57,561 nucleotides of DNA from a virus (taxonomy: Duplodnaviria > Caudoviricetes): the IMG/VR virus record IMGVR_UViG_3300036859_000285, positions 1 through 57,561 of that record; one strand, written 5' to 3'. Positions 27,659 to 56,859 of the stretch are shown piece by piece. The notes below the pieces were generated by a model. The model ran no database searches. It was not told the DNA's origin and worked only from the letters and a program-made list of their open reading frames with translations. The stretch's first letter is position 1; every line of letters starts with the position of its first letter. Made by a program: the position numbers and the translations under genes.

Positions 27659-28213
27659 GTGAATTCACCCCCACACGCCCAACCCTGGGACGGCTCAGGA
27701 GAGGCCGCCAGTGGCCGCCAGGGCCACGACAAGCCCCTCTCTGGCATCCCAGGACCCGAAAACGACCCCCAGAGGCTCACGGAGCCGCACAGCGCCTCGC
27801 CGAAAGCCGGCGGATGCTGGGCCCTGTACTGCCGCTCCAACCGCGGCGGCGACGACGCGATGCAGACCCTCAACGCCCAAGAGGCCACGCTGCGCGCTCT
27901 CGCGGCCGCCCGCGGCGCCACCGTGTGCGGCGCCTGGCTCGAGATCGGCCCAGGCCCAGGCAGCGCCTATCACGCGATGATCCAGCACCTGCGCGGCAAC
28001 GGATGCGCACGCGTCGCCATCTACGACCTCGGCCGGCTCACCCGCGACCCCAACGAGTTTCAGCTCGTGATGGAGTTGCTCGCCGAGCTCGGCATCGGCC
28101 TGACCCTCGCGGACGGCACCGACCTGGATACCGCCGACGACCCCGTACTCAGGCTCAGGCTGTACGGCTTCGCACCGCGAAAGGCTCGCCTCGCCCCGGG
28201 ATCCAACTGGTGA
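27659..28213 (+). CDS. Stand-alone serine-recombinase catalytic domain, probably inactive; start uncertain
   Basis: WALYCRSN...Q...LR...VAIYDLGRLTRD; no DNA-binding domain. Confidence 0.7.
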   Translation: MNSPPHAQPWDGSGEAASGRQGHDKPLSGIPGPENDPQRLTEPHSASPKAGGCWALYCRSNRGGDDAMQTLNAQEATLRALAAARGATVCGAWLEIGPGPGSAYHAMIQHLRGNGCARVAIYDLGRLTRDPNEFQLVMELLAELGIGLTLADGTDLDTADDPVLRLRLYGFAPRKARLAPGSNW

Positions 28214-29646
28214 AACAAGGCATTCTCGCGGCCGCCGTGGCGCCCCTGCCATGCGGCATCTACGTCCGCATTTCCAAGGACAGGCTCATGGAAGGCCTCG
28301 GCGTCGCACGGCAGGAAGGCGACTGCCGAGCCCTGGCCGAGAAACGCGGATGGGCCGTCGTCGACGTCTACTGCGACAACGACGTTTCAGCGAGCGGCAA
28401 GAAAAAGCGAGAGCAGTGGGAACGTCTACTTGCCGACCTCCAGAGCGGCCGCATCCGCGCAATCGTCGCCTGGCATGTGGACCGGCTGACCCGCCGCCCT
28501 GTCGAGCTCGAGGGCGTTATCGATATGGCCGACCGGCTCGGCGTGCAGTTGGCGACCGTGAACGGCGAAATCGACCTCGGCACACCCACCGGGCGTGCAA
28601 TGGCCCGCATTCTCGGCGCCTGGGCTCGGCTCGAGGTTGAACAGAAATCGCTGCGGCAGCAAGCGGCGAATAAGCAACGTGCACATAGCGGAGAGGTGTG
28701 GTGTGGGGGCATGCGCTGCTACGGATATACAGAAGACGGCCACGGCATTATTGAGAAAGAGGCGGAGATAATCCGCGAGATGACTAAGCGAGTCATCAAT
28801 GGCGATTCCCTGAGAAGCCTTGTTCTCGAGCTGGTACAGCGCGGCATCACCACCACGACGGGCGGCCCGTGGCAGGCGTTGACGATCCGCCGGCTGCTGC
28901 AAAATCCCCGGCTGACAGGCAAGCGGGTCTACCGCGGCGAGGTCGTTGCTCAAGGCCAGTGGCCGGCCATCCTGGAGGAGGCGACCCAGCAACGCCTGAT
29001 CGCCGTCTTGGCCGATCCGGCTCGTCGCAAGGACCGCTCGCAGCCTGGCGAGGCCAAGGTCCGAAAGTACCTGCTGACAGGGATCCTGGTCTGCGGGATC
29101 TGTGGCAAGCCGCTGCAGGCGCAGCCGAGCAACGCCGGCCGGCGCGGGTACGTCTGCCGCAAGACGCCGCCGTACGGCGGGTGCGGCCGCATCCGCATTG
29201 CCGCCGAGCCCCTCGAGCTGGACGTCGCCGAGCGGGTCCTCGCCCGGTTCGCCTCGCCGTCCATCCGGCAAAAGCTGGCCGCGGCGAGCACGTTCGAGGA
29301 TGACGCCACGCTGACCGAGCAGATAGGCGAGCTCGAGCGCCGCCAGGTCGAAAACGCCGAGGACTACGCGAATGACTTGCTCGATCGCCGCGCTTACCGG
29401 CTCGCCCAGGAGAAGATCTCAACGCGGATCAAGGAGCTCCGCGGCCGGATCATGCACCTGACGAGGCTGGAGCATCTGCCGACTGAGGTCACACCGGTCA
29501 CGTTGGCGCAATGGTGGGCCGACGCGTCTTTGCAGCGTCGCCGCGATCTGATTCAAACGGTCTTCGAGCAGGTCGTGATCGGGCCGACGACGCGTCCTGG
29601 ATTTCAGGGACTCGACGAAGCGAGATTGACCTATATCGCCCGATAA
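28210..29646 (+). CDS. int: Large serine integrase
   Basis: IYVRIS catalytic Ser, DRLTR, recombinase domain (YGY...NPRLTG), Zn ribbon LTGILVCGICG...YVC...GC, coiled coil. Confidence 0.95.
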   Translation: MKQGILAAAVAPLPCGIYVRISKDRLMEGLGVARQEGDCRALAEKRGWAVVDVYCDNDVSASGKKKREQWERLLADLQSGRIRAIVAWHVDRLTRRPVELEGVIDMADRLGVQLATVNGEIDLGTPTGRAMARILGAWARLEVEQKSLRQQAANKQRAHSGEVWCGGMRCYGYTEDGHGIIEKEAEIIREMTKRVINGDSLRSLVLELVQRGITTTTGGPWQALTIRRLLQNPRLTGKRVYRGEVVAQGQWPAILEEATQQRLIAVLADPARRKDRSQPGEAKVRKYLLTGILVCGICGKPLQAQPSNAGRRGYVCRKTPPYGGCGRIRIAAEPLELDVAERVLARFASPSIRQKLAAASTFEDDATLTEQIGELERRQVENAEDYANDLLDRRAYRLAQEKISTRIKELRGRIMHLTRLEHLPTEVTPVTLAQWWADASLQRRRDLIQTVFEQVVIGPTTRPGFQGLDEARLTYIAR

Positions 29647-34193: not shown

Positions 34194-34545
34194 GATCGAC
34201 AAGTACGGGCTCGGCCAGGACATCCTGAGGGTGCGAGGCGTGACGCGGGTGATCGAGGTCAGCCTCAATCAGGTCCTGGCCCACGTGTTCACGTTCACCG
34301 TCGACGGCGCCGACTACGCGGTTTCGATTGACGCCGGTGAGCCGTGGAGTTCCATGATGAGCCCGCCTCCCATCTCGCGTGAGGGCACGAGTTCGCCTGA
34401 CGCGCCCTGGGTCCGAGAGCCGGTGTTCGCCGAGCTGTGGCGCCTCCTGCGGACCAACGGCAGCACATTCAAGGGCGGCGCGTCGTTCATCCGCGCCAGC
34501 GCGCCCGGCGGGTCGGCCGAAAGGTCAGGGCTGGGGCCCGCGTAG
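34186..34545 (+). CDS. Hypothetical protein
   Basis: GGAGGAG RBS. Confidence 0.55.
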   Translation: MNEIDKYGLGQDILRVRGVTRVIEVSLNQVLAHVFTFTVDGADYAVSIDAGEPWSSMMSPPPISREGTSSPDAPWVREPVFAELWRLLRTNGSTFKGGASFIRASAPGGSAERSGLGPA

Positions 34546-35025
34546 CGGGAGATCGTCGTACACGAAGCGGGTGCGCGCGGGGTCGGCGACGATCGTCGTG
34601 TATTCGATGGGTCGGCCGTGCTGGTCGCGGGTGAGCCGGGCGACGGTGAGGACGTCGCGGCCGGGCAGGCGGAGCTCGGCGGCTTCGGCGCGGGTGGCTG
34701 GCCGTACGGCGAGTTCTTCGGTGGCGGTGGCGGGTTGGATGCCGATGCTGTTGAGTACGCCATACTGGTCATGGTGGTTTCGGGTCGGCGGAACAATGTC
34801 GAGCTGACGCCGTGGAACTGCGCGTGTGTCTCGGAGAAGATGCGCTGCATTCGGGCGGACGTCAACGACCTGCCCTGGAACGCCTTCCAGCTCGCCCGCG
34901 TCGTCGAGCGAGACGAGATGGGCGTCCAGCAGGATCGGGGCGAGGTTGCGGGCGCCCCCGTTCGCCGGCCCTACGCCTGCGGTCATCCCCGAGGACGACG
35001 GGCCGCCGGTCATCGCGTCCCACAT
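34525..35025 (-). CDS. Stand-alone UTRA-domain protein (GntR/HutC effector domain without HTH)
   Basis: EELAVRPATRAEAAELRLP..VLTVARLTRDQHGRPIEYT..V....RFVY. Confidence 0.75.
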   Translation of the reverse strand: MWDAMTGGPSSSGMTAGVGPANGGARNLAPILLDAHLVSLDDAGELEGVPGQVVDVRPNAAHLLRDTRAVPRRQLDIVPPTRNHHDQYGVLNSIGIQPATATEELAVRPATRAEAAELRLPGRDVLTVARLTRDQHGRPIEYTTIVADPARTRFVYDDLPLRGPQP

Positions 35026-35101
35026 CGCTCTTGTTAGCCGCGCCCACGCCGAGGACCCTTCCAATATCGAGCTGAGAGCGTGAGGTTGTTCGGCCCCCGT
35101 C

Positions 35102-35584
35102 ATGACTGACTACCAAGCTCCCTCGCCACTGGCGGCTGACCGGCCTGGATTTCTCGACGCCATCGGTCGCCTGGTAGCCGCCGGGATCATCCCGCTTAGG
35201 AAGCCCTGCGGCGTCTGCATGGTCTGCGCGGGCCGCGTTCAGGGGAATGTCGAGTGCGACGGGGCCGCCGTGCTTGACGCCGTCGACTGGCCGGTAGAGC
35301 TGGCCACAGCCATCGGCCGCGCCGAACGGGCTGAGGCTGCGATCGCCCGCGCAGACGAGGCCGCCATCCGGGCCGACGAGCGCGACCGAGTCATCGGAGA
35401 GATCAACGAGTGCTTGCACCTGAGTGAGGGCGAGTCCGCTGCCATTGGTCTGCTCAGGTGGATCTTGACCCAGAACCAACGGGAACAGGCCCGCCCCAGA
35501 CGCGCAAAGGCGCCCGAGGCGCCTGGGGCGTTCGCGAGCGCCTTCCGTACAGTCTCGCCCGCCCTCGAGGACGACGGCGAATGA
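35102..35584 (+). CDS. Hypothetical protein (CxxC plus coiled coil)
   Basis: PCGVCMVC; coupled to next ORF. Confidence 0.6.
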   Translation: MTDYQAPSPLAADRPGFLDAIGRLVAAGIIPLRKPCGVCMVCAGRVQGNVECDGAAVLDAVDWPVELATAIGRAERAEAAIARADEAAIRADERDRVIGEINECLHLSEGESAAIGLLRWILTQNQREQARPRRAKAPEAPGAFASAFRTVSPALEDDGE

Positions 35585-37579: not shown

Positions 37580-38497
37580 ATGTTCGTCATCGACCTCCTG
37601 TTCACTGGCGCCATCGTCATGGGGATCGTCGGCCTCGCCCGCTGGGCCAACAGCAAGCCCGCCACGGGCGGCAAGCCAGCCAGTCGCAGGCCGCCGAGCC
37701 GCACTCAAGCCCGCACCTCGGCCCGCAAGTCTCTGTTCGTCACGGCCTGGAATGCCAGCGGCGCCCAGAAGCTGGAGACGACGCGCCTATCCGAGGCGGT
37801 CGCCGAACTGACCGGCCGCACCGCCGGCGGTCTGGGCCGCGCTTCCAAGAGGAAGGCCAAGTCAGCCAGGGATCGAGCCGAGGAACGCTGGACGGCCCGA
37901 GAGCCCGCCCGCCCGATGTTCTGGCGGCTCCGCAAGCCCGAGGCCGACCCCGCCGAGCAGGCCGATGAGGTCAAGCCCGCAGACGCAGGCAAGCCGGCCG
38001 CCGAGCAGGCGGATGCACCACCGCCGGCGAAACCGCCCGCGGGCAAGGCCGCAGACGCACCGCACGACAGCAAGCCGACCGATCAAGGAGATACTCCCGT
38101 GGCTACTCCGTTCCGTCCCGCCCCCGCCCCCCTGGCGGCAGCCGGGACCGTGCTCAACGTCAGCGGCGCCTGGCCCGCGGTCATCGCCAACATCGCCGAT
38201 CTGGTCCCCGAGAGCGATCACCACCTGCTCACTACCTGCAAAGAGGAGATCTCGGGCGTTCTCGGGTACGCGTCGGCCTGGGCCGTCCTGCACGAGACCT
38301 GCATCAACGCCATCGGCCTTGACCCCGCATCGGTCCAGGGCGTCGCCGAGTTCGCCGAGCACCTCGGCGAATGCTCGGCCCGCCTCGCCGAGGCGCACCA
38401 GCAATTCATGACCGTGTACGCCGAGATCATGCAGGCCGTCGCGAACGGCGTCGTCCTGCCGTACAACGGCCGGTTCATGACTGGGGAGGCGAGCTAA
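37580..38497 (+). CDS. Membrane-anchored protein with C-terminal helical hairpin (TraA-like position)
   Basis: N-terminal TM, P/A linker, helical C-domain ending GVVLPYNGRF. Confidence 0.7.
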   Translation: MFVIDLLFTGAIVMGIVGLARWANSKPATGGKPASRRPPSRTQARTSARKSLFVTAWNASGAQKLETTRLSEAVAELTGRTAGGLGRASKRKAKSARDRAEERWTAREPARPMFWRLRKPEADPAEQADEVKPADAGKPAAEQADAPPPAKPPAGKAADAPHDSKPTDQGDTPVATPFRPAPAPLAAAGTVLNVSGAWPAVIANIADLVPESDHHLLTTCKEEISGVLGYASAWAVLHETCINAIGLDPASVQGVAEFAEHLGECSARLAEAHQQFMTVYAEIMQAVANGVVLPYNGRFMTGEAS

Positions 38498-38760
38498 TGC
38501 TCGCGATGATCAAAGCCGTCCTGATCTTCCTCACCGATTGCATGATCGATCTGCTCTGGGCCGCCACCCTCTATTTCACCCTCACCCACTACGGCGCGCC
38601 GTCCTGGGCCGCCGGCCTGATCGCAGGCATGTGCCTCGTCATGTTCGGTGGCGCCGCCGTCGACCTCATCCAGGAACCGCTAGCCAAATACGTCCACCGC
38701 ATCGGACGCGCAGACGAGGACGACGACCAGCTGTGCGACTGCCAGGGCGAGAAGGGATAG
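38497..38760 (+). CDS. Small 2-TM membrane protein
   Basis: GGAGG RBS; hydrophobic. Confidence 0.7.
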   Translation: MLAMIKAVLIFLTDCMIDLLWAATLYFTLTHYGAPSWAAGLIAGMCLVMFGGAAVDLIQEPLAKYVHRIGRADEDDDQLCDCQGEKG

Positions 38761-38763
38761 ACG

Positions 38764-40788
38764 GTGCCACCGAGGGCCCCGAAGCCGCCGTTGCGGGTTG
38801 CTGTCGGCCAGCGTCTGGCCGGCCGCCCGCAAATCCATCTTGGCCAGCATGTCGGCCAGCATCAGAAGGCTCCTTCCCCTGGCCTTCTGTCGCGTGCCGC
38901 CGGCTGGATCCAGGCGGCACCGACCGAGCGCGCCCCGCTGCCTATTGGCGTGGGCGTGTTCGGCGTCGGCGAGATCCTCCACGTGACGCACACGCCCGCG
39001 TGGATGATCGGCATGGGCGTCCTCGGCGGCACCGTCGCAGCGTGGGGCGCGGTCCTCAACCGGACCAAGGACGGTCCGGCCGCGTTCAAGGCCGGCGCCG
39101 CGGTGATCGCCGCCGGCGCCTGGCTGTCCACTGCGGCGCTCGTCGGCGTCGACGCCTGGATGACCGCGGTCTACTGGGGCCTGTTCGGCGTTGCGTACGG
39201 CATCTATCGAGCCGACGACCTCACCCGCCAACAGGTGTACTGGCGCAAACAGAAAGCGTCCTGGCACCAGCTCGCCCGCCAGTTCGGAATCCCCGGATCA
39301 ACCCTGCTCAAGATCGAAGACACCCGCCTCGGGCAGAAACTCGTCATCGACGTCAAGGGCGCCGGCCGACGCGCCTCGCACATTGTCGCCTCGGACCTAG
39401 CCGAGCGGATCGCCGAACACCACATGATCCCCAAGGTGCGCGTGCAGGTGCGTGAGGCGAACATCGCCGGCCGCATCATCGTGTCGATCCGGATGAAAAG
39501 CCCGTGGGACGTGCCGATCAAGCACCCCACCCTTGACCCGACGTCCGAGATCGTGCTGCCCGAGATCGCCGACATCCGCGAGCCGCAGATCGTCGGCATC
39601 GACCCCGAGAACGGCCGGCCCCTCGAGATCACGTTCTGGGATGAGGACGGCGCCCGCAACATCCTGCTCGTCGCCGTCAAAGGCGGGGGCAAGTCGGTCC
39701 TGGTGTCCGACGTGCTCGAGCGGCTCACCGCGGCCGACAACGTGTGCATCTTCGGCATCGACCTGTCCAAGGCCAAAGAGATGCGGCGCTGGCGCAAGGC
39801 CCTCTACCTATCCGCCTGCGGCCCCGGGGAACGCGTCAAGGCGCTGCGCATGCTGGAGATCGCGCACGCAATCATCGACTGGCGGGCCGCACAGCCGACC
39901 GACGACGCCGTGCACGTGCCGACCAAACGCAAGCCGTACGTCGCCGTCATCGTCGACGAGATGTCCGCGGCGCTCGGCGTCAACGACCCGATCGGCCTGG
40001 CGATCCGCGAGCACATGGCCTACATCACGTCCAAGGGCCGAAGTGAAGCGGTCGGCGCGTTCCTCGTCGGGCAGCGTGGCACCGTCTCGCACCTGGGTAC
40101 GGCCGACATCCGCTCCATGGTCGACACGGTCATCCTGCAAAAGCTCAACCGCAAGGGCGAGGCCGCGCATGCCGCCGGCGAGCTCGGCCTCGAGCTTCCC
40201 GACATGTCGCGGTACGGCGAGGGCAAGCCTGGCGTCACCTGCATCGCGCAGATCGACGGCTCGTATGAGCTTGGGCGGACCTTCGCTCTGGTCGACCTGC
40301 GCGACATCGACCGGATCGCGGCCGAGCGCACCCCCTGCCCGCTCGAGCCCGAGCTTGTGGAGTTCCTCGGCCCGAAGCTCGCCAAACTGCACGACCCGAT
40401 CGAGCCCGGGCAGCTCGCCGAGACCGCACCCGAGGCGGCCGAGCAGGCGGCCCAGGGCGCGAGCATCCGCGAGAGCGTCCGCCGCTACCTGTTCGCCGTC
40501 CCCGACATGGCCAACCCGTCGCCTGAGATGGCCGCCAAGTTCGCCGAGGCCGCGGCGATCCGCCGAGCCCAAGCGGCCGAGCAGACCGTGCTGTCCGACG
40601 ACGTCCGCGCCCGCGTCATCGAACTGCTCAAGGAAGGGACCACGGTCCGCGCCGTGACCAAGCATCTGGACATCGGGCAGACGTCGACCTGGCGCGTCAT
40701 GGACCGGCTACGGCAGGAAGGTGTCGCGGTCTGCACGAGCCGCGGCCGTAACGCCCGCTGGCACCTCGCAGAGAGTGACTCAGCGTGA
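38764..40788 (+). CDS. traB: TraB-like FtsK/SpoIIIE dsDNA translocase
   Basis: N-terminal TMs; Walker A AVKGGGKS; Walker B VIVDE; KGRS and GQR motifs; C-terminal wHTH. Confidence 0.88.
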   Translation: MPPRAPKPPLRVAVGQRLAGRPQIHLGQHVGQHQKAPSPGLLSRAAGWIQAAPTERAPLPIGVGVFGVGEILHVTHTPAWMIGMGVLGGTVAAWGAVLNRTKDGPAAFKAGAAVIAAGAWLSTAALVGVDAWMTAVYWGLFGVAYGIYRADDLTRQQVYWRKQKASWHQLARQFGIPGSTLLKIEDTRLGQKLVIDVKGAGRRASHIVASDLAERIAEHHMIPKVRVQVREANIAGRIIVSIRMKSPWDVPIKHPTLDPTSEIVLPEIADIREPQIVGIDPENGRPLEITFWDEDGARNILLVAVKGGGKSVLVSDVLERLTAADNVCIFGIDLSKAKEMRRWRKALYLSACGPGERVKALRMLEIAHAIIDWRAAQPTDDAVHVPTKRKPYVAVIVDEMSAALGVNDPIGLAIREHMAYITSKGRSEAVGAFLVGQRGTVSHLGTADIRSMVDTVILQKLNRKGEAAHAAGELGLELPDMSRYGEGKPGVTCIAQIDGSYELGRTFALVDLRDIDRIAAERTPCPLEPELVEFLGPKLAKLHDPIEPGQLAETAPEAAEQAAQGASIRESVRRYLFAVPDMANPSPEMAAKFAEAAAIRRAQAAEQTVLSDDVRARVIELLKEGTTVRAVTKHLDIGQTSTWRVMDRLRQEGVAVCTSRGRNARWHLAESDSA

Positions 40789-40794
40789 TGAAGA

Positions 40795-40866
40795 AATGTT
40801 CCCCCCGAATGTTCCAGGCCAATGTTCCAGGCCCGTATAGGAGACCTGGCGAACGTTTGGAACATT
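40795..40866. repeat. clt-like 8-bp repeat cluster
   Basis: AATGTTCC at 40795, 40808 and 40821 (13-bp period); inverted GGAACATT at 40859. Confidence 0.6.
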
Positions 40867-40912
40867 CACCGGCTCCAGCTACGGACAGTGACGAATCGGG
40901 AGGCTGGCGATC

Positions 40913-41440
40913 ATGACGGCTTTCACCGTGCAGGCCTCTCAGCTCGCCGATCTCCATGACCTCGCTTGGAGCGCCACGTTCGCAGCCGCCCGTTGCAAGG
41001 CGACCGGCCTGGACGTCCGCTGCTATGCCGGCATCATCGGCACGGCTCGCATCCTGTCCATGCGGACGGGCGCGGCAACCTGCCCCTGGTCCAACGACAC
41101 GGCGCTCGTCGCCTGGATCTACGACACGTTGCTTGAGGTACGGCAGCGCCTCGTCGCCCTCCGAGCGCTGCGTGTTCGTGTCGTAGACGCCCTGGCCAGG
41201 GCCGAACGAGGCCTTCGTGAAGCCCAGGAAGACGGGCGGGACACCTCGCGATACATGCGCATCATCGCCGACTGCCGAGCCGCGCTGGAAATCATCACCG
41301 CAGTCACCGCACTCCTCATCTACGTGGCTCGACGCCTGTCCGCCGTGCCCGCCGAGCTGGGGGAAACCTACGCGGCCGCCTACGCCCTGCTCGCTCGAGG
41401 GGGTGTCCTGCCCTTCGACGGCCGCTGGATCTCGCCATAA
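40913..41440 (+). CDS. Helical hypothetical protein of the transfer module
   Basis: GGGAGG RBS; ends GGVLPFDGRW. Confidence 0.7.
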   Translation: MTAFTVQASQLADLHDLAWSATFAAARCKATGLDVRCYAGIIGTARILSMRTGAATCPWSNDTALVAWIYDTLLEVRQRLVALRALRVRVVDALARAERGLREAQEDGRDTSRYMRIIADCRAALEIITAVTALLIYVARRLSAVPAELGETYAAAYALLARGGVLPFDGRWISP

Positions 41441-41498
41441 ACACGTTGATCCACGAGTAATTTGACCTGCACCCGCCGTGACTGGAAGGCCCCCCGAC

Positions 41499-42773
41499 AT
41501 GTTTCGCCGCCGTACACCCGACCTCGTCGAAGACGTCATCACCGAAGCCGAGAAGGCGCGCGCCGTCGCCGACCTCAGCGAGTCCCAGACCCGCATTGCC
41601 GCCGCGGCCGCAGACGCGGCACAGATCACCCATCAGGCCAAGCTGGACCAAGACGCGGCCACACAAAAGGCCCGCATCGACGCCCAGGAACGTGACCAGC
41701 GAGCGGCCGCCAAGCGCGCGCTTGCCGCCGAGAAGAACCGCAAGGAGCTGCATGCCGTTCGCGGCGACAGGGTTGCCGCGCAGAAACGGCAAGCGCGGCA
41801 AGCAGGCGCCGAGCGTGGGATGCGAGCCGCCCGTACGGCGTTCTCGATCGGTGTCAACACGGCCGCCTGGTTCGGCCAGTTCGGCTACCTACACGACCAG
41901 GTTGCCGCCCCGCTCGTCTGGTCCGCGCTCATTGCCGCGCTGCTTGAGCTCGCCGCGGTCAGCGCTCAGGCGTACGCCACGGCGGCCGCCATCGATGGCG
42001 ACCGCGTCCTGCCCAAGCTCATCCTGTCCTACCTGTTCGCAGGGGTTGTCGCCTGGCTGAACTACAGCCACTGGACCCAGACGCCAGGCCGAGAAGGGCT
42101 TGCGATCCCGTTCGCCTTGATGAGCATCGCAAGCCCGATCTTCTGGCAGATGCACTCGGCGCACGCGCACCGCGACGAGCGGCGTGCCGCACGCGACAAC
42201 CGGCGTGCCGACAAGGAAGCCAGGCGTGCCGCTAAGGGTGTCGCGACCTTCTCGGTCTGGCGCTGGATCTTCTGGCCGATGGAGACTCTTAGGGCCCAGC
42301 GGATCGCCATCCGCTTCAACGAGCCCAATCCCGAGGTCGCCGTCGACCTAAGCCTCGACTACCTGGCCGAGCAGCGCGCCGAACGCGAACGGCAAGCCGC
42401 GATCAGGGCCCACCTGGACGCGGCAAGGCAACGGCAAGGCCTCCTGTCATGGTTTAAGAGGCCGCCCCTCGAGCTCGAGGCAGGAGAGCAGCAGCTGCAG
42501 GACGACGAGCTCGACGAGGACGCTGAGCGCGAGCTCGATCTACCCGACGTGCCCAGCCCGCACGAGCTCGCTGACATGAACGATCGGGAGATCAAGAAAG
42601 CGGCACGCGCGACGTACCGCGCGGCCAATCAGCAGGGCCTGGTCCTCACCGGCCTCGAGCTTGGCGCCGCCTACGAAAGGAGCGAGTCGTGGGGGCGCAC
42701 CCGGATCCGCGAAGTCAAGGGACAGGTGATCCCAGGCGAAACCATTGGCCGGCACGCGGCAGAGGGACTGTGA
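41499..42773 (+). CDS. SpdB2/DUF2637-like 4-TM spread protein with coiled coils and C-terminal HTH
   Basis: Coiled coil, 4 TMs (LLELAAV, WLNYSH), RW..WP.ET, TGLELGAAYERSESWGRTRI. Confidence 0.7.
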   Translation: MFRRRTPDLVEDVITEAEKARAVADLSESQTRIAAAAADAAQITHQAKLDQDAATQKARIDAQERDQRAAAKRALAAEKNRKELHAVRGDRVAAQKRQARQAGAERGMRAARTAFSIGVNTAAWFGQFGYLHDQVAAPLVWSALIAALLELAAVSAQAYATAAAIDGDRVLPKLILSYLFAGVVAWLNYSHWTQTPGREGLAIPFALMSIASPIFWQMHSAHAHRDERRAARDNRRADKEARRAAKGVATFSVWRWIFWPMETLRAQRIAIRFNEPNPEVAVDLSLDYLAEQRAERERQAAIRAHLDAARQRQGLLSWFKRPPLELEAGEQQLQDDELDEDAERELDLPDVPSPHELADMNDREIKKAARATYRAANQQGLVLTGLELGAAYERSESWGRTRIREVKGQVIPGETIGRHAAEGL

Positions 42774-46864: not shown

Positions 46865-47049
46865 CGGAGTGAGGGAACGTAAGGAAGGCAAGGAACGCCG
46901 ATGACCAGGAACGCCGCCCACACGACCAGCCACACGGACGCCGCCAGCACCGGCCGCAACAAGGCCGCGGGGATCTCGTGGGCATGACCGCCATCGGCGC
47001 CCGCATCCGCTGTTACGGCCTACGACTGTGGAACGGAGGAAAACGTCAT

Positions 47050-47217
47050 ATGACCCCCCTGCAGCTCGCCCTCGAGGCGACCACGCACCTGCGCGAGGAC
47101 GTCAGCAACATCGTCTACCTCCCGCCCGCCGAGCACGACCGCGCCCTGCAGGACGTTGAGCTCGCCCTCGGCGAACTGGCCAAGCTCATCACGTCCGCCA
47201 TCGATCAGGCCGCCTGA
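47050..47217 (+). CDS. Small hypothetical protein
   Basis: GGAGGA RBS. Confidence 0.65.
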   Translation: MTPLQLALEATTHLREDVSNIVYLPPAEHDRALQDVELALGELAKLITSAIDQAA

Positions 47218-47842: not shown

Positions 47843-48034
47843 ATGAGCACCTCGCTGCCGGCGCTCGGCCCGTACGCGGCCAAGTGGATGCGCCCGTGCA
47901 CCGCGCGCGGCCGCAACCACGCCGGCGAGGTCGCCGCGTGCGGGGCAACACCGACCCGCCGGTTCATCAATGACTGGCTGTGCCAGCAACACGCCTTGCC
48001 GCAGCCCACGATCACGGCGCCGCTCAAGGTGTAG
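47843..48034 (+). CDS. Small Zn-binding hypothetical protein
   Basis: CGATPTRRFINDWLCQQH. Confidence 0.6.
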   Translation: MSTSLPALGPYAAKWMRPCTARGRNHAGEVAACGATPTRRFINDWLCQQHALPQPTITAPLKV

Positions 48035-48086
48035 GGATACAGTCAGGCATTGTCACTGCAGGTGGTCAACGGGGGGACCAGCCAGC

Positions 48087-48638
48087 ATGAGCTATCCGAA
48101 GCCGCAGATCTTCCGCTCTAAAAGGGCGTCGATCGTCGCCATCTGGCACCAGTGGAAAAAGGACCGCGCGGTCTGGCAGGACCTCGCGCACGCCCTGGTC
48201 GACGATCTCGGGTTTCCCGGGCGGGCGCCCGTCCTGGTGCAGGACCCTGACACGCTCACGCTGTCGGTCGCTGCGATCGAGTACATCGCCGGCGAGCCGA
48301 TCCTGCCCGGCTGGGCCCGCGCCGAGTGCGACGGCCTGCCCGTCCTGGTGCCCGACCCCAGGACGATCACCGGCCGCCGCTCCCAGGACGCGTTACGGGC
48401 GCTGCGCTGCCCGACCGACCCGCGCTGGCTACTGCCCGGCATGCCGCCGACGATCCCGCCCGCCGATCCCGAGTCGCCGCCGGCCTACGCCGCTCTGGAG
48501 TGCCGCCACAACGGCACCGCCCTCTACGTCGTCTGGGACCAGGCGCCGGCCGCCGACCTGATCGACCTGGACCTGTGGCGCGAGGTGCCCTACGCCGAAT
48601 ACCGGCAGACCGCCGCCAGCGAGGCGGGCACCCCATGA
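48087..48638 (+). CDS. Hypothetical protein
   Basis: GC3-rich; coupled to next ORF. Confidence 0.7.
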   Translation: MSYPKPQIFRSKRASIVAIWHQWKKDRAVWQDLAHALVDDLGFPGRAPVLVQDPDTLTLSVAAIEYIAGEPILPGWARAECDGLPVLVPDPRTITGRRSQDALRALRCPTDPRWLLPGMPPTIPPADPESPPAYAALECRHNGTALYVVWDQAPAADLIDLDLWREVPYAEYRQTAASEAGTP

Positions 48639-48877
48639 GCACGCGTCCGCGGCCGCGCTGCCAGTTCTCCGAGCTGTACGTCGACGAGTGCGCCCACTGC
48701 CGCGGCATCGCAGACGCCGGCGCCCGCAGCCCCGCGGCCGCCGCGGCGCCGACCCGAGCCGTCTACGCCGGCAGGTGCGCCGCCTGCAATGAGCCGTTCG
48801 GCGAGGGCGACCCGATCAAGAACGTGCGCGGCCTCGGCTGGATCGCCGGATGCTGCGAGGACTGCGATGGGGCGTAG
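48635..48877 (+). CDS. Cys-rich small protein
   Basis: CAHC, CAAC. Confidence 0.65.
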   Translation: MSTRPRPRCQFSELYVDECAHCRGIADAGARSPAAAAAPTRAVYAGRCAACNEPFGEGDPIKNVRGLGWIAGCCEDCDGA

Positions 48878-49769
48878 TCCGGACGCGTGCCCGGGCGGCT
48901 GCAATCGGTCCTACCGCCGCGCCTGGGACCTGTATGAGCGAGCATTGTCGCGCTGGCTCTTCCAAGAGTTGGCCACGCCTGCCCTCAGGCTGGTCGCTGG
49001 CGGCTGCAACCTGCCCGCCCTACTGCTCGATACCGGCGGGCACCACATCGCCCCTCCTGTGGCCCTGCAGCGGCCCGACCCGCCGCGGATGCCGTTCTGG
49101 GTCGGCGGCCCCTGGTGCGCCCGCTGCCGCGGTCTGATCGCCCGCTGCCTGCGCAACATCGACGACTGGGCCGCCGAGATCGCCGCCGAGAGCGACGGTC
49201 ACCGCGGCGGCAACCACGGCGACAAGATCACCGCCTCGAAAGGCCGGCCGTCGCTGTCTCCGCCGGCCGACCTGCTCGACGTCGTGTACGGCAACCTCGT
49301 CACCCTCGAGGACGAATGGCGGCAGGTCCGCGGCTACCCCAAGCGGCCGCACCGCCGAAAGACGCAACGCGGCGGCTATGCCCGCCGGCTGACGATCGCG
49401 TTCCTGCTCGAGGAACTCGAATACCTGCTGACGCACCCGTCCAGCCACGAGCAGAACAAAACTCTTGACCATCTGCGGGGGTGCGCGAGCGTCCAGGCTG
49501 GCCGCATGATCCTGCGCTGGGAACGCATCCTCATGGACGCCGCCGGCGAGGACCCGCGCCCCTGGTGGGCCGCAGTGGAGTGCCCGCGCTGCCGTCAGCG
49601 TGCCCTGCACCCGCTCAACGACGGCTACATCGGCTGCGGCAACAGTAAATGCAACCGGATCATGACCGAGGACGAATGCCGCCGCGAGCTCGCCGAGCAG
49701 GCCGACGCCCGCCATACCGCGCAGGCTGAGCCGCAGACCGCCGAGCAGGCCCAAGATGTCCCCGCGTGA
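48867..49769 (+). CDS. Zn-binding hypothetical protein (possible late regulator)
   Basis: WCARC...; C-terminal CPRC...CGNSKC. Confidence 0.7.
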   Translation: MGRSPDACPGGCNRSYRRAWDLYERALSRWLFQELATPALRLVAGGCNLPALLLDTGGHHIAPPVALQRPDPPRMPFWVGGPWCARCRGLIARCLRNIDDWAAEIAAESDGHRGGNHGDKITASKGRPSLSPPADLLDVVYGNLVTLEDEWRQVRGYPKRPHRRKTQRGGYARRLTIAFLLEELEYLLTHPSSHEQNKTLDHLRGCASVQAGRMILRWERILMDAAGEDPRPWWAAVECPRCRQRALHPLNDGYIGCGNSKCNRIMTEDECRRELAEQADARHTAQAEPQTAEQAQDVPA

Positions 49770-49974
49770 CTGCTGCTCGCCGTGGCGGCGCCTGCTGTGC
49801 CTGCTCGGCCGGCACGACTGGGTCACCCGCCGACATGAGTTCGGCCGCGACGAGTACGGGATTGCCCTGCTCTGGCTCGCCCGCCGCTGCCTGTGGTGCC
49901 CCAAAACCCGCAGCCTCCCCGAAGACGGCCACGCACCCGCCAAACCGGACCTGCACGACTCACAAGAAACATGA
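49756..49974 (+). CDS. DUF1660-like small protein
   Basis: LLCLLGRHDW...CLWC. Confidence 0.55.
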   Translation: MSPRDCCSPWRRLLCLLGRHDWVTRRHEFGRDEYGIALLWLARRCLWCPKTRSLPEDGHAPAKPDLHDSQET

Positions 49975-49990
49975 ATCAGGAGAGCTGTAC

Positions 49991-50644
49991 GTGACACCTA
50001 TCGTGTTCGTCGACACCGAGACGACCTCGCTGCGGCACGACCGCCGCATCTGGGAAATCGGCATGATCCGCAGAGACGAGACCGGCGACACCGAGATCGG
50101 CATCTACGTCGCCGACGTCGACCTGTCCGAGGCCGACCCCTACAGCCTCGAAATCGGCGGGTTCCACGAGCGGCACCCGCTCTGCCGGCCGAAAGCCGCT
50201 GGCGACACCAACCTGATCCTCGGCGAGCAGGACGCGGCCGCGATCGTCCGCGACTGGACCCACAAGGCGCACCTCGTCGGCACCGTCCCCAACTTCGACG
50301 CCGAGGGCCTGGCGGGCCTCATGCGCCGCGTCTGGATGTGCCCCACCTGGCACTATCACCTGATCGACGCCGAAACCATGGCGATCGGCTGGCTGCACGC
50401 CTGGCAGAGCCTCGAGCCCCTCGAGGATGAGGACGGCAACCCCGCCGCCAGGCCGCTGGGCCTGCCCTGGGACTCCGACGCAGTCTCCAAATCGTGCGGC
50501 GTCGACTCCACGCTGTTCCCGCGGCATACCGCGCTCGGCGACGCCCGCTGGGCTCGAGCCCTGTATGACCGCGTGACCGGTCATCCGACCCCCGAGACAA
50601 CCAAGCCGGCCGACGTCGACCACATCTTTGGTCACCCGTTCTGA
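49991..50644 (+). CDS. DEDDh 3'-5' exonuclease
   Basis: FVDTETT, PNFD, RHTALGDA. Confidence 0.88.
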   Translation: MTPIVFVDTETTSLRHDRRIWEIGMIRRDETGDTEIGIYVADVDLSEADPYSLEIGGFHERHPLCRPKAAGDTNLILGEQDAAAIVRDWTHKAHLVGTVPNFDAEGLAGLMRRVWMCPTWHYHLIDAETMAIGWLHAWQSLEPLEDEDGNPAARPLGLPWDSDAVSKSCGVDSTLFPRHTALGDARWARALYDRVTGHPTPETTKPADVDHIFGHPF

Positions 50645-50661
50645 CCGAGCCGAGGGGGATC

Positions 50662-50907
50662 ATGGACACGATGAACCTGGATGCCGAGCTGACGATCGCG
50701 CAGGTCGTCCTGTACTTCGGCGGCGACGTCTCGTACCGGTGCGTCGACGGCTGGGTACGGCGAGGCCTGCTCAAACCGACCCGCTGCGAGGCGGACGGCC
50801 TGCGGATCCGCCTCGGCGACGCTCTGGAGGCCGAATGCGCGACCAGGTTGACGCGACGCGGCCGGCCGCGACGCCGCCAGGTGCTGGCCAGCCGTAACCA
50901 TTTGTGA
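50662..50907 (+). CDS. MerR-like HTH protein
   Basis: VSYRCVDGWVRRGLLKP. Confidence 0.65.
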   Translation: MDTMNLDAELTIAQVVLYFGGDVSYRCVDGWVRRGLLKPTRCEADGLRIRLGDALEAECATRLTRRGRPRRRQVLASRNHL

Positions 50908-51181
50908 GACCCTCCCGTCGAAACTGGATGATCTATGGTTCCGCTCCGGTTCGTCGGGGGGCGACCGGGAGCCGTTCCGATCTCCAGTAAGCGGGTTGGC
51001 CGGCGACAAGAGGTCACGGCGGATCTCTTCCTCTCGCGGGGATAGCTGGCCACCCGCAACACCCCGAGACGCCGTACAGGTACCGCCCCCGGCCCTGTAC
51101 GGCAACCCCCGGTACGCGGCCCAGACCATCGCCCTCGGCCCCCTGGGCGTGGTCTGGGCCGCCCCAAAAGGCACCATTATG

Positions 51182-51205
51182 AGCCGTCCTCATCGGGCGG
51201 CTTTT
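51182..51205 (+). terminator. Hairpin plus U-tract before the fibre operon
   Basis: AGCCGTCC-tcatc-GGGCGGCT-TTT. Confidence 0.5.
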
Positions 51206-51226
51206 CTCATGTGAGGAGGGCCCCCG

Positions 51227-51682
51227 ATGGGCGACGTCGTCGCGAACATTTCCAAGGGCAACCTGGTGAACTATGCCAACTTGCCCGGGGCAACCGATTC
51301 CTTGATCGCCGTGCTGCTCAAATCCTCGGGGCTCGAGGCCGACGCGACCCTCGTCGACTATGACGACCTGGCCGCGCTGCTCGCCGCAGCCAACGATGAG
51401 TGCGACTTCACGAACTACGCACGGCAGACCATAACCGCGATCGTGGTCACGGTTGACGACACGAACAACCGCGTTGACATCGACTGCGGCGACATCACGT
51501 TTACGAACGCCGGCGGCGCGACGAACAACGCCATCGGCAAGTTGGTCCTCTGCTACAAGCCAGCCTCGGGCAGCGCCGACTCGGCGATCATTCCGATGAC
51601 GTTCCATGACTACGTGGAGACGACCACGGGCAGCACGCTGCAGCTCCAGATCGCCGCGGCCGGTTTCGCTCGAGCAGCCTGA
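51227..51682 (+). CDS. Virion structural (fibre-associated) protein
   Basis: GAGGAGG RBS; TNYARQT...VDDTNNRVD.D..DITF. Confidence 0.7.
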   Translation: MGDVVANISKGNLVNYANLPGATDSLIAVLLKSSGLEADATLVDYDDLAALLAAANDECDFTNYARQTITAIVVTVDDTNNRVDIDCGDITFTNAGGATNNAIGKLVLCYKPASGSADSAIIPMTFHDYVETTTGSTLQLQIAAAGFARAA

Positions 51683-51692
51683 GCGCTGACCG

Positions 51693-52196
51693 ATGGGAAC
51701 CGTCCGGCAGCTGCTCGCCCCCGAGGAAGCTCGTTTCCTGTCCTCGTCGTTCCCGCAGATCGTCCAGAACAACGGCAGCAACTTCCCGGTCACGGGCCTA
51801 GCGTTCGACTCGGGCGCGACCGAGACCGCCTATTTCAAACGCAGGCTGGTCTCGTACGGCTCGGGCAACATCACGATCAACCTGACGTGGTACGCCGACA
51901 CTGCCTCCTCCGGGGTCGTCCGCTGGTCGGGGGCGATCGCCTGCATCACCCCCGACACCGACACCCAAGACGTCGAGACCAAGGCATTCGCGAGCAGCAC
52001 AGACACCGATGACACGCACCTCGGCACGACCGGCCAACGGCTGCATCAGATGAGCCTGGCCATCAACAACCTCGACTCGGCGGCCGCCGGCGACGTCGTC
52101 TGGATCAAAATCTCGCGGCTCGGCGCCCACGCCAACGACACCATGAGCGGCGACGCGATCCTTGTCGAGGCCGAGCTGAGCTACTCCGACACCTGA
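51693..52196 (+). CDS. Probable virion beta-sandwich protein
   Basis: Beta-rich; AAGD...ISR...NDT..GDA. Confidence 0.6.
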   Translation: MGTVRQLLAPEEARFLSSSFPQIVQNNGSNFPVTGLAFDSGATETAYFKRRLVSYGSGNITINLTWYADTASSGVVRWSGAIACITPDTDTQDVETKAFASSTDTDDTHLGTTGQRLHQMSLAINNLDSAAAGDVVWIKISRLGAHANDTMSGDAILVEAELSYSDT

Positions 52197-52209
52197 CCAG
52201 GGGGCGAAG

Positions 52210-54672: not shown

Positions 54673-54863
54673 GAACTCCCATTTAGGGGGCGACGCACAG
54701 AGATGGATGTCCGACCTCGGCCCGTGGCCGCAAGGGGTCTGCGAGCGCCCGCAGCTCAGAGAGCAGGTCTCTGTCACCCCCGCACCGCCAGGTAACACAG
54801 TTCGGCGCCGTACCACGGTTGGGCGCCGAACCCCCACAACGGCCCCGTAGGGAGGTGACGACA

Positions 54864-56315
54864 ATGCTGCGCATCGACAGCGGATCGAGCGAATGGATAC
54901 GGCTCCCGCTCGCCGGCGAGACCAACCTCACCGACTGGGACGTCGAGATGGCCGTCACCCCCTACGGAACCAAACCCACCGAGGACGACTGGAAAACGGC
55001 CACCTGGGACACCGCCACAACCCCCAAAATCAAGATCGGCCCCGGCACAGACCTCGAGCTCGAAGACGGCACTTACCAGGTACGAGCCCGAATCCACACG
55101 CCCGAGGAAACCCCCATCATCCGCGGGCCGATCCTCCTGCGCTACGGCACGACGACCTACGTGCCAGGCGGCAGCTCAGGCGGCAGCAGCGACGGCGCCG
55201 TCGACAGCGTCAACGGCCACACAGGCGCCGTCGTGCTCACCGCGACAGACGTCGGAGCAGACGTCGCCGGCGCGGCCGCCACGGCACAGACCGCCGCCCA
55301 GGCCTACGCCGACACCGCCGCCAACACTGCCGCCGGCGCACGCCTCGCCAAGAGCGCCAACCTGTCCGACCTGGCCAGCGCGAGCACCGCCCGCGGCAAC
55401 CTCGGCCTCGGCGACTCGGCAACCCGCAACATCGGCACCAGCTCAGGCACCGCCGCGGCCGGCGACGACTCACGCATCACCGGCGCCGCCCAGAAGACGG
55501 CCAACCTCTCAGACCTGCCGAGCCCGAACACGGCGCGGACCAACCTCGGGCTCGGCGGGGCCGCCCTGCTCAACATCGGCACCAGCGCGGGCACCGCGGC
55601 CGCCGGCGACGACACCAGGATCACGGGGGCCGCCCAAAAGACGGCCAACCTGTCCGACCTCGCCAGCGCAAGCACCGCGCGGATCAACCTCGGACTCGGC
55701 GCGGCCGCCCTGCTCAACGTCGGCACCAGCGCGGGCACAGTCGCCGCCGGCGACGACTACCGCATCCTCGACGCAACCCAGAAGAGCACCGTCTACCCGC
55801 TCGCCGGATACGGCCTGCTCGCCGCAAGCGGCGTACCCGAGGCGTTCAACACCCCAAGCTCGTACGGCTCGGGCGTCTTCGCCTGCCGCGTCTGGATCCC
55901 CGCGGGCGCGGCGATCACCTCGCTCTGGACCGCCGTCCTGGCCGGCGGCACCTACAGCTCAGGCGGCCCTAACCAGCTCGGCCTCTACGACGACGACGCC
56001 CTGCAGGTCGCACTCACCGCCGACGACCCCACCCTGTGGAGCGCAGCAGGATGGCGAGGCGGCGCCCTGGCCGGCGGCCCCATCCCCGCTCAGACCGTGG
56101 GCAGGTTCGTCTACCTGCTGACCATCGCGAACGGCTACAGCGGTCTGCAACTCCCGTTCGGCCCTGCCGGATCACACGGCGCATGGTTCGCAACCGGACC
56201 AGGCACGACCAAACGCCGCGCGATCTACAACAACGTCGCGTCAATGCCCGCCTCGTTCGACCCGAGCAGCTACGGCAGCGCGACCTCGTACGAGCCCCTG
56301 GTCGGCGTCAGCTAG
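54864..56315 (+). CDS. Tail-fibre-like protein with 3 x 48-aa repeats
   Basis: VDSVNGHTGAVVL; KSANLSDL...ARxNLGLG...AGDDSRI repeats (144-bp period, 55350-55781). Confidence 0.8.
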   Translation: MLRIDSGSSEWIRLPLAGETNLTDWDVEMAVTPYGTKPTEDDWKTATWDTATTPKIKIGPGTDLELEDGTYQVRARIHTPEETPIIRGPILLRYGTTTYVPGGSSGGSSDGAVDSVNGHTGAVVLTATDVGADVAGAAATAQTAAQAYADTAANTAAGARLAKSANLSDLASASTARGNLGLGDSATRNIGTSSGTAAAGDDSRITGAAQKTANLSDLPSPNTARTNLGLGGAALLNIGTSAGTAAAGDDTRITGAAQKTANLSDLASASTARINLGLGAAALLNVGTSAGTVAAGDDYRILDATQKSTVYPLAGYGLLAASGVPEAFNTPSSYGSGVFACRVWIPAGAAITSLWTAVLAGGTYSSGGPNQLGLYDDDALQVALTADDPTLWSAAGWRGGALAGGPIPAQTVGRFVYLLTIANGYSGLQLPFGPAGSHGAWFATGPGTTKRRAIYNNVASMPASFDPSSYGSATSYEPLVGVS

Positions 56316-56354
56316 ACCTCGCCACCCGTACCTTCGCTATGGAGTTGAGACACC

Positions 56355-56684: not shown

Positions 56685-56859
56685 TGGACGTAGCCGTTGT
56701 AAGCGGGGCAATCCGCGCAGGCGGCTGGTGCGAGGGATGCCAGACCTCGAGCCTGCTCACCAGCACCCTGTACGCCGTCCCCCTGCACGGGGTCCCGACA
56801 CCGCAACCCATCGCCACCTGGCGAACCTGCCCTCGCTGCGACTGCGGAGAGAACCCCGC

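Follow-up and report, generated by a model that had tools for sequence, protein, structure and literature searches.

What is the role of a short protein tail that is carried by both of the proteins encoded on either side of a DNA translocase gene? The question is raised by the window analysed here, a 57,561-nucleotide stretch of viral DNA (IMG/VR record IMGVR_UViG_3300036859_000285), in which a traB gene sits between two open reading frames, ORF A and ORF B, whose products (A and B) end in a similar motif. An earlier note on this DNA had drawn attention to the two ends, and had proposed that they act as a docking or secretion-like signal for the FtsK ATPase or as a heterodimer interface. The ORF translations give both ends exactly as that note wrote them, and both frames look coding by composition. 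The features that concern us are as follows:

34525..35103, minus strand: GntR-type (UTRA domain) regulator candidate, a positional analogue of TraR/KorSA (Pfam UTRA E 2e-7, above the cut-off)
37580..38497, plus strand: ORF A, 305 aa (ORF and translation; GC3 0.85)
38417..38494, plus strand: tail module at the end of ORF A, YAEIMQAVANGVVLPYNGRFMTGEAS, with the opening Y codon at position 38417
38497..38760, plus strand: small ORF, 87 aa, its product hydrophobic over residues 1-27 and again over 36-59 (GC3 0.86, GC2 0.40)
38764..40788, plus strand: TraB-type DNA translocase, 674 aa (phrog_1358, FtsK structure, HTH_23)
40795..40866, no strand assigned: clt-like repeat block (AATGTTCC, three direct copies and one inverted)
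40913..41440, plus strand: ORF B, 175 aa, soluble and all-helical (ORF and translation; GC3 0.80; AF2 model)
41369..41437, plus strand: tail module at the end of ORF B, YAAAYALLARGGVLPFDGRWISP
41478..42773, plus strand: 431-aa protein, possibly a Spd-like membrane protein (phrog_10376 E 1.6e-6; hydrophobic segment 141-165)

The locus is a Streptomyces-type conjugation module (TraB/FtsK-like, for double-stranded DNA) of a Streptosporangiaceae-like element. By its sequence the translocase is a TraB of the Streptomyces type, given the combination of weak FtsK similarity, a C-terminal helix-turn-helix (HTH) and 8-bp repeats downstream. It matches phrog_1358 (FtsK/SpoIIIE-like, E 4.9e-7) in PHROGs and FtsK 2ius among the structure profiles (E 0.0082, residues 373-482), Pfam yields AAA_22 alone in the ATPase region (E 0.023, below its cut-off), and Walker A (GGGKS) and Walker B (VIVDE) motifs can be read; weak FtsK similarity is what TraB proteins are expected to show. 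The HTH (residues 611-655) is a match to HTH_23 at E 1.3e-6 and 28.5 bits, for a cut-off of 24.6. TraB is 52% identical to its orthologue at locus L003; against translocases of Streptomyces plasmids, identity is 24-30% in alignments that cover 28-60% of TraB, and a search against phages gave no match. Immediately 3' of traB, the four copies of the repeat lie within 72 bp, with direct copies at 40795, 40808 and 40821, an inverted copy at 40859-40866 and a central GTATAGG between. A similar layout with element-specific 8-mers occupies the same intergenic spot in L003, L027, L028, L029, L030 and L032, where the 8-mers are mostly present in both orientations and most surround a TATAG-like centre. 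In the main text of Thoma et al. (2015; PMC4447253), clt consists of 8-bp repeats bound by TraB, a description that the repeats seen here match, and we call them clt-like.

Several neighbouring genes complete the picture. The ATG of the small 87-aa ORF overlaps the stop codon of ORF A (TAATG); a Pfam scan of its product gave no match, and the ORF is not kept in L003, where the gap between ORF A and traB is just 93 bp. Pfam likewise returned no match for the 431-aa protein. No GntR HTH was detected in the regulator candidate as its ORF is called, and no att repeat of the tRNA-Ser region was found inside the window.

The shared motif is real and lies far beyond chance, as judged from its recurrence in A-TraB-B triads and from profile comparison. 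Across loci the consensus reads Y-x9-G-x2-[LM]-[PT]-x2-G-R-[WF]-x-T-G and spans ~25 residues. Comparison of A and B as a single pair by BLASTP gives just a 13-residue match (E 0.033). Both tails are nevertheless present next to traB, where the earlier note had suggested that the motif be sought, in each of the eight genome loci where A, TraB and B are encoded together, besides the window, and in 4/4 loci on IMG/VR viral contigs; the motif is conserved in both families. When the A-domain family (alignment A6, 54 sequences) was compared with the B family (alignment A3, 76 sequences), hhalign returned a probability of 98.0 and E 1.9e-13. The tail alone (the last ~27 columns) gave E 3.7e-16, against E 0.25 for a reversed control, and without the tail the comparison dropped to E 0.007 in register and E 0.003 between two GLDP segments. 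What A and B have in common is therefore a short module and not clearly a domain, and the earlier description of the two proteins as otherwise unrelated is nearly right, save for this faint similarity outside the tail. Each profile also recovers the tail of the other family, the B profile finding the A tail in four genomes (E 1.4e-5 to 8e-5) and the A profile finding the B tail in nine (E 2.9e-8 to 5.8e-4).

Conservation within the tail is strongest in A, where the G, R, T and G residues are invariant (G105, G112, R113 and G117 in A6) and W114 is kept in 91%, among proteins that are only 26-53% identical. The B alignment has P in 99%, two G positions at 96% and 93%, R in 53% and D in 29%, and the W position of the B representatives holds W (55%) or F (45%); the R and W positions are thus looser than in A. 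Of the 120 A-domain matches listed, 118 carry the motif, always 5-8 residues from the C-terminus. Among 149 B representatives, the strict form is found in 75 and a loose form in 135, and the distance from the strict motif to the C-terminus (n=75) is at most 12 residues in 48, 13-40 in 17 and more than 40 in 10. In B proteins fused to a multi-pass membrane part (P0102, P0146 and L067) the motif is internal; the 431-aa membrane protein of the window has no BLASTP similarity to the membrane part of these fusions (E at least 0.85). Conservation of the motif in both families supports the view that the tail is a selected, functional module common to both of the proteins that flank traB.

The proteins that carry this module differ in architecture. 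A has an N-terminal membrane anchor (residues 1-22), a basic Pro/Ala-rich linker and a C-terminal helical domain (~186-305), and its orthologues are 33-47% identical. AF2 models residues 186-305 (pLDDT 83) as a helix-turn-helix hairpin whose turn is G-L-D-P, with helices at 12-21, 28-60 and 64-103 of the domain and short strands at 108-110 and 113-115. The B model (pLDDT 93, pTM 0.85) is made up of helices 3-12, 15-31, 35-47, 62-106, 112-152 and 154-161. In the models both tails follow a long helical hairpin. A hairpin in the tail itself is tentative, since this part of the A model has a pLDDT of 53-79 and residues 162-175 of B are modelled without secondary structure (pLDDT 75-81). Past its anchor A becomes strongly basic, and the domain lies on this basic side of the anchor; in two-helix forms of A the second helix ends RRHHR. 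B has no signal peptide and no clear membrane segment. Both tail-bearing domains are accordingly predicted to be cytoplasmic, with A on a membrane tether.

Neither protein could be placed in a known family. Searches of A and B against Pfam, NCBIfam and PHROGs gave no match, and the B-family profile found only coiled-coil noise in the PDB (E at least 0.12). Fold searches returned generic helical bundles and hairpins only, both for B (best Z 10.7, CorA; Foldseek E at least 0.84) and for A (best Z 8.9; Foldseek E at least 0.95). The ESM Atlas gave nothing usable for B and actinomycete clusters for the A domain, including one near cluster at a score of 0.75, which is below the 0.9 bar and so a lead only; 34% of the members of this cluster carry the 'TraA-like' family PF28214, itself a sub-threshold lead. 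A word-index search for B homologues recovered the window's own protein alone, and an exhaustive profile search gave 178 representatives at E <=1e-3. P0144 was rejected as a BatD/DUF11 false positive. Prediction of a complex between TraB and B (alignments A5 and A3) gave no verdict (score 0.00) and speaks neither for nor against binding.

A and B strictly co-occur, and the module is strictly linked to traB. In a set of 301 genomes from a single actinomycete family, the nine with a match to the A-domain profile are also the nine with a true B match; four further matches to the B profile (G150, G041, G100 and G204) were discarded as GNAT-like or coiled-coil false positives. A sister TraB clade provides an informative comparison (four loci in three genomes, G178 twice, G132 and G134, two of the loci being near-identical). 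In this clade the gene upstream of TraB encodes a protein with the helical domain (E 3e-5 to 1.3e-7) that ends ...ARG-LAITG-QDAA, without LPxxGRW, and no B was found adjoining TraB in L055, L056 and L058, nor genome-wide. The LPxxGRW part is therefore not needed for the fold, and instead tracks the presence of B. Neither B nor the A domain, nor an A-domain protein that stands alone, gave a tblastn match in PLSDB plasmids, and HMM searches of two Streptomyces plasmids found no relative of A or B, which argues that the module is not a general requirement of TraB systems.

We estimate an about even chance that the tail is a common interaction module of a TraB/Spd-like transfer complex, joining A to B or both of them to TraB. 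In such a complex, a membrane-tethered A (encoded upstream of traB) and a soluble, helical B (encoded downstream of traB and of the clt-like repeats) would present the same terminal module, tentatively a short helix (Y-x9-G) that leads into a turn or beta-hairpin ([LM]-[PT]-x-x-G-R-[WF]-x-T-G). The module would bring A and B to a single site of this complex, on the cytoplasmic side of the membrane. It would bind either the other tail (A pairing with B) or a site common to both, for which TraB is the most plausible place. Conservation of the tail, co-occurrence of A and B and the absence of both LPxxGRW and B from the sister clade fit docking at a common site as well as a heterodimer interface. 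To this extent the docking or heterodimer reading of the earlier note is partly supported: conservation, the co-occurrence in 9/301 genomes and the sister clade all point to a conserved functional module of both proteins. A bolder version, which we consider very improbable, would make the tail a docking peptide for a hexameric TraB motor, a single ring of which would hold tethered A and free B adaptors that gate or load the pump or even travel with DNA into the recipient; in this version, since phage genes surround the present copy, the window may be a temperate phage or phage-element hybrid that can also spread by TraB conjugation.

Other explanations of the tail deserve consideration. It could be purely structural, an intramolecular cap that each protein places on its own helical hairpin after a partial duplication, with no shared partner. 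The position of both tails behind a long helical hairpin in the models would suit a cap, and the faint similarity outside the tail, at the GLDP segments and in register, hints at an old common origin. However, the sister-clade domain keeps its helices without LPxxGRW, this part of the motif follows the presence of B, and the near-invariance of the tail in A exceeds what a cap usually needs, such that we think this reading unlikely. We regard it as decidedly unlikely that the tail binds a host protein, DNA (for example the clt region) or the cell envelope, with A and B as independent adaptors. In favour of such a partner, ORF B starts ~50 bp past the clt-like repeats, which enclose a conserved TATAG-like centre, and accessory proteins of plasmid pSVH1 bind peptidoglycan or DNA, as the main text of PMC4447253 has it. 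On the other hand, neither A nor B matched a family that binds DNA or the wall, binding to the wall is disfavoured by the predicted cytoplasmic location of both domains, and the linkage is to one TraB clade, with no host lineage feature apparent. Chance resemblance, or a DNA-level repeat without meaning for the protein, would be in keeping with the modest single-pair BLASTP result but has negligible probability: a further 12 loci and two large families preserve the motif, the tail profiles align far better than the reversed control, and the identical columns in a DNA alignment of the two tails fall mostly in codons of shared residues, with no long exact repeat. These findings refute it.

The earlier note had also drawn a parallel with type VII secretion, in which the TraB ATPase would read the tail as a signal for secretion or docking and the module might move protein as well as DNA. 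WXG100 proteins (EsxA/EsxB) carry a C-terminal signal, YxxxD/E, that is read by the FtsK-like ATPase EccC/EssC. There is a conceptual likeness, in that here too a helical hairpin with a conserved C-terminal tail is encoded beside an FtsK-family motor, and the fixed distance of the A motif from the C-terminus (5-8 residues in 118 of the 120 matches listed) would suit a signal. Nonetheless, the parallel is disfavoured and we hold it to be highly improbable. The tail motif differs from YxxxD/E, W-x-G occurs nowhere in A or B, and no Pfam family, WXG100 included, matches either protein at E <=0.1. Matches of the A model to the WXG100 structures 3gwk, 3gvm, 3o9o and 3zbh are not significant (Foldseek E 1.7-5.4), and the wide VIA list holds just generic helical hairpins (Z <=8.9). 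The ORFs between 25.7 and 46.3 kb, scanned with Pfam, include no T7SS core genes (EccB/C/D, MycP and the like) and no T7SS membrane components. Moreover, the N-terminus of A anchors it in the membrane with its domain on the basic side, and B lacks a signal peptide and a clear membrane segment. In B the spacing between motif and C-terminus varies, and the motif is internal in the three fusions. Lastly, the TraB encoded here is a single-domain DNA pump that has an HTH and is accompanied by clt-like repeats.

A shared interaction module of a TraB/Spd-like complex, which we favour, has partial counterparts elsewhere. Type IV coupling proteins (VirD4/TraD) are FtsK-related hexameric membrane ATPases that recruit their partners via short terminal peptides. 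The combination of such an ATPase with short terminal peptides resembles what we propose, but no T4SS genes are present here and the partners would be structural neighbours encoded by the element instead of relaxases or effectors. A closer likeness is to the TraB-Spd complex of pSVH1, which, in the main text of Thoma et al. (2015; PMC4447253), has an FtsK-like TraB whose C-terminal HTH recognises DNA, 8-bp clt repeats near traB, a GntR-type regulator nearby (a candidate in our case) and small uncharacterised proteins encoded directly up- and downstream of traB, to which A and B are likened by position alone. Two-hybrid analysis in that text has small proteins encoded beside traB binding TraB or each other; Orf108, Orf140 and Spd198 associate with themselves and also with TraB or with other proteins of the Spd group. 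In the passages of that text on these proteins, we found no shared tail motif described. Our system differs from pSVH1 and the Streptomyces plasmids in its TraB (24-30% identical) and in A and B, for which tblastn of PLSDB found no match. A literature search brought up no mention of the motif, nor of accessory proteins to TraB in this actinomycete family.

In mycelial actinomycete conjugation the first transfer needs only TraB, and to our knowledge the placing and gating of the TraB pump, and how it is joined to the spreading (Spd) proteins, are poorly understood. A and B, as protein families invariably found with a single TraB clade, offer a defined and testable handle on this problem. Their ~25-residue tail, with its near-invariant G, R, W, T and G positions, is open to deletion or mutation, and the sister clade, which lacks both LPxxGRW and a B gene, is a natural control. 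If the tails do mediate assembly, they would provide a first rule, at the level of sequence, for how a TraB-type DNA pump recruits its partners.

The two proteins that flank TraB in this window (57,561 bases, GC about 0.67; IMG/VR virus record) end in tails that match exactly the reading of the earlier note, as the translations of their ORFs confirm. In both ORFs GC content varies with codon position as in real genes (GC3 0.85 for A and 0.80 for B), and position 38417 is the codon for Y in the A tail. The sequence pair taken alone is weak evidence: a single BLASTP comparison of A with B aligned 13 residues at E 0.033. The features of the conjugation module are these.

34525-35103, minus strand: ORF with a UTRA domain, which may be a GntR-type regulator
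37580-38497, plus strand: ORF A, 305 aa, C-terminus YAEIMQAVANGVVLPYNGRFMTGEAS
38497-38760: two-helix ORF, 87 aa, overlapping the stop codon of A
38764-40788, plus strand: TraB, 674 aa, between A and B
40795-40866: block directly after the traB stop resembling clt, the cis-acting transfer locus of Streptomyces plasmids; AATGTTCC in three direct and one inverted copies within 72 bp
40913-41440, plus strand: ORF B, 175 aa, C-terminus YAAAYALLARGGVLPFDGRWISP
3′ of B: 431-aa protein with a hydrophobic segment

A motif search beside traB homologues found both tails kept in eight genome loci and four IMG/VR loci (fetched loci are labelled L, sampled genomes G and B-family proteins P). The sole genome locus reached via TraB, L003 of Sphaerisporangium rhizosphaerae, keeps the gene order of the window and has a TraB 52% identical to the window's; there the C-terminus of the A orthologue is YQEVMEAVARGVVMPYQGRFFSGQAV, and the B orthologue contains YAAAYALIARGRTLPHEGRWVTG. 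We searched 301 genomes of this species' family with a two-sequence B profile, which matched 13; nine were left after four were rejected as GNAT-like or coiled-coil proteins, and in four of these nine the profile also matched the tail of the traB-upstream ORF (E 1.4e-5 to 8e-5). By tblastn and ORF extraction, the order A-TraB-B with both tails was recovered at L003, L027, L028, L029, L030, L031, L032 and L034, the last with a TraB that looks truncated; in the degraded L033 TraB is fragmented, and L035 and L061 run into contig ends. When IMG/VR was scanned with the A-domain alignment, four loci (L064-L067) were recovered, all four with the triad and both tails. A and B also occur together: in the family sample the A-domain profile matched exactly the nine true-B genomes, eight of them with a full A domain and a cross-match on B 2.7-3.3 kb away, counts to be read as at least these because the search used a stricter first pass. 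Across a class-wide sample of 401 genomes, true matches to the A and B profiles were confined to G001 and G137. The TraB profile matched 154 of the 301 family genomes at E ≤ 1e-8 (a tally that includes G126), and the closest TraB clade, above 900 bits, consists of exactly G001, G137, G214, G119, G072 and G117.

Exhaustive HMMER searching with the B profile returned 178 cluster representatives at E ≤ 1e-3, of which 71 reach E ≤ 1e-10; among the 149 representatives listed (window protein left out), 75 have the strict motif and 135 the loose one, and a subclass reads G-D-F-L-T-G. At E ≤ 1e-3 the profile of the A C-terminal domain matched 189 proteins, 66-210 aa long; 118 of the 120 matches listed end in the motif, in every case with 5-8 residues between it and the C-terminus. 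Many of these short, apparently stand-alone A forms fall into 90% clusters with longer proteins (270-377 aa). Four of the longer proteins (323-359 aa) show membrane helices at the N-terminus along with a basic stretch and a linker, so fragments or late start calls account for at least some of the short forms. Column statistics for both families give the common signature Y-x9-G-x2-[LM]-[PT]-[HYF]-[DNE]-G-[R/D]-[WF]-h-T-G. Aligned with hhalign, the A domain (54 sequences) and B (76 sequences) matched over 63 columns with probability 98.0 and E 1.9e-13 (E 2.2e-13 in an earlier nine-sequence version). This signal is concentrated in the tail, and the solid result is thus a common module of about 25 residues; deeper A-B homology is only a possibility. 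The earlier note's description of A and B as otherwise unrelated is close to right, since without the tail hhalign reaches only E 0.007 or 0.003.

hhalign comparisons of the A domain with B, by part aligned
Last ~27 columns alone: probability 98.7, E 3.7e-16
Tail removed: still in register, probability 5.4, E 0.007
Last helix and tail removed: best match places the A VGLDP turn on the B AGLDP segment, E 0.003
Reversed control: E 0.25

Both domains are modelled as helical. The B model (pLDDT 93, pTM 0.85) is all-helical: residues 62-106 and 112-152 form a long hairpin, 154-161 a short helix, and the tail that comes next is unstructured (pLDDT 75-81). In the A-domain model (pLDDT 83), helices 28-60 and 64-103 form a hairpin whose turn is G-L-D-P; short strands follow at 108-110 and 113-115, L-P-Y and R-F-M, around an N-G turn (pLDDT 53-79). 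Fold searches with the two models gave generic helical matches only, and no relative of A or B was found in Pfam, NCBIfam, PHROG or PDB. The window's A has one hydrophobic helix (residues 1-22) and then a strongly basic stretch, and two-helix forms of A carry RRHHR... directly after the second helix. The positive-inside rule is an established basis for membrane topology, and by it the C-terminal domain is predicted to be cytoplasmic in one- and two-helix forms alike. B has no signal peptide, and its sole hydrophobic stretch falls within a helix that is buried in the model. In two B-family proteins (P0102 and P0146) and at L067 (9163-11502), a C-terminal multi-pass membrane part is fused to B and ends in an HTH-like segment; BLASTP found no similarity between this membrane part and the 431-aa protein of the window. 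These fusions mirror A, with an anchor that is N-terminal in A and C-terminal in the fused B.

The earlier note had read the tail as a docking or secretion-like signal for the FtsK ATPase, or as a heterodimer interface. The fusions of B to a membrane part make the motif internal in P0102, P0146 and L067, and WXG100 structures match the A model only at Foldseek E 1.7-5.4. Neither A nor B contains W-x-G or matches a Pfam family at E ≤ 0.1, Pfam scans of ORFs between 25.7 and 46.3 kb gave no T7SS core gene, and A has a membrane anchor; a secretion signal is accordingly disfavoured. That the tail is purely structural is a reading weakened by a sister TraB clade at about 330-346 bits (G178 twice, G132 and G134; L055-L058). 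Here a weak A-domain match lies directly upstream of TraB (E 3e-5 to 1.3e-7, Z 1000), and the A-like protein ends ...EEAREVAARGLAITGQDAA or ...ARGLAITGQDAA, without LPxxGRW, the later part of the motif. No B was found 3′ of TraB in L055, L056 and L058 (L057 stops at a contig end), nor genome-wide in G178, G132 and G134 by profile search. In this small sample of four loci, two of them near-identical, the fold therefore does not need LPxxGRW, and A carries it when B is there. Downstream of TraB, L055-L058 have instead a protein of 112 aa whose end is CxxC-rich, and an ORF that reads as SSB-like. Proteins directly upstream of more distant TraB homologues (L060 3795-4292 and, in Streptomyces plasmids, L062 661-2670 and L063 1755-3359) have a different, mutually similar tail, ...H.EQ...ENP...KWD / ...IENPRPGEDLWDV, and conserved C-terminal tails on traB-upstream proteins may be a wider theme.

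The name traB used in the earlier note is reasonable, given four TraB-like features: weak FtsK/SpoIIIE similarity (phrog_1358, E 4.9e-7; FtsK structure 2ius, E 0.0082), a C-terminal HTH (HTH_23, E 1.3e-6, above cut-off), a hydrophobic segment at the N-terminus, and the clt-like repeats. The protein is 24-30% identical to Streptomyces plasmid translocases, and PMC4447253 describes the same repeat layout for the plasmid clt bound by TraB. The clt-like block lies about 50 bp upstream of the B start, and the traB-B gap of L003, L027, L028, L029, L030 and L032 holds an 8-mer repeated two to five times. These 8-mers, like that of the window, are element-specific, and at most of the loci a TATAG-like centre separates direct copies from inverted ones; L031 and L033 have a TTGTAAAC-like word in place of the 8-mer. 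This centre could be a promoter of B, in which case TraB binding might also control B. Two TraB genes, L032 4641-7862 (G120) and L066 5191-8532 (IMG/VR), have an insert of about 390 aa directly after the Walker A region; that of L032 contains a LAGLIDADG_3 domain (E 2.7e-6), and the inserts, at the same profile position in both elements, appear intein-like.

The surroundings of the module are phage-like. The left 24 kb (73-24400) carries terminase, portal, protease, major head, tape measure and endolysin genes, and the right 10 kb (47970-56700) carries phage-family genes including a DNA-binding PHROG and an exonuclease-like gene. Further features are as follows.

27814-29646: large serine recombinase
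47012-47104, minus strand: tRNA-Ser (CGA), right of the conjugation module
54819-56315: ORF with a tail-protein PHROG match, tail fibre
56355-56684: ORF with a tail-protein PHROG match

Judged by gene content, the TraB module seems either embedded in a prophage-like region or abutting one, and the whole could be a phage carrying the module or a prophage adjoining an integrative element. A tblastn search with TraB matched none of 50,697 phage records. No repeat of the tRNA-Ser region that would mark the element ends was found elsewhere in the window. In G001, a 192-bp direct repeat (98.4% identical; L003 6688-6878 and L007 8015-8205) occurs twice on one contig, 30.4 kb apart. It takes in the final ~150 bp of the B orthologue together with 37 bp downstream, and its second copy, in L007, is joined to an unrelated upstream frame. 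The two copies look like the ends of an integrated element, whose attachment site would in that case overlap the part of B that encodes the tail. A large ORF that looks Cas3-like by eye and, also by eye, repeat-rich, CRISPR-like stretches lie close to the second copy, a little beyond the 30.4-kb interval. SsgA proteins are a sporulation and cell-division family; the Sphaerisporangium element has an SsgA-family gene at L003 1391-1789 (E 4.9e-19) and a second, judged by eye only, at 8387-8821.

The most economical reading is that A and B serve the TraB transfer apparatus as accessory subunits and that their helix-plus-turn tail is an interaction module. The tail would bring membrane-tethered and free (or oppositely tethered) helical domains to one site at the cytoplasmic face, where it could bind the other tail or a single TraB site. 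The data show the motif with its conservation, linkage and co-occurrence; location, binding and partner are inferred. A precedent comes from the Streptomyces plasmid pSVH1, for which PMC4447253 describes traB-adjacent proteins that bind N- or C-terminal parts of TraB and each other. No published full text carrying the motif peptide strings was found, and searches on TraB, clt and AICEs, judged from the papers listed and from passages of PMC4447253, turned up none naming such a motif.
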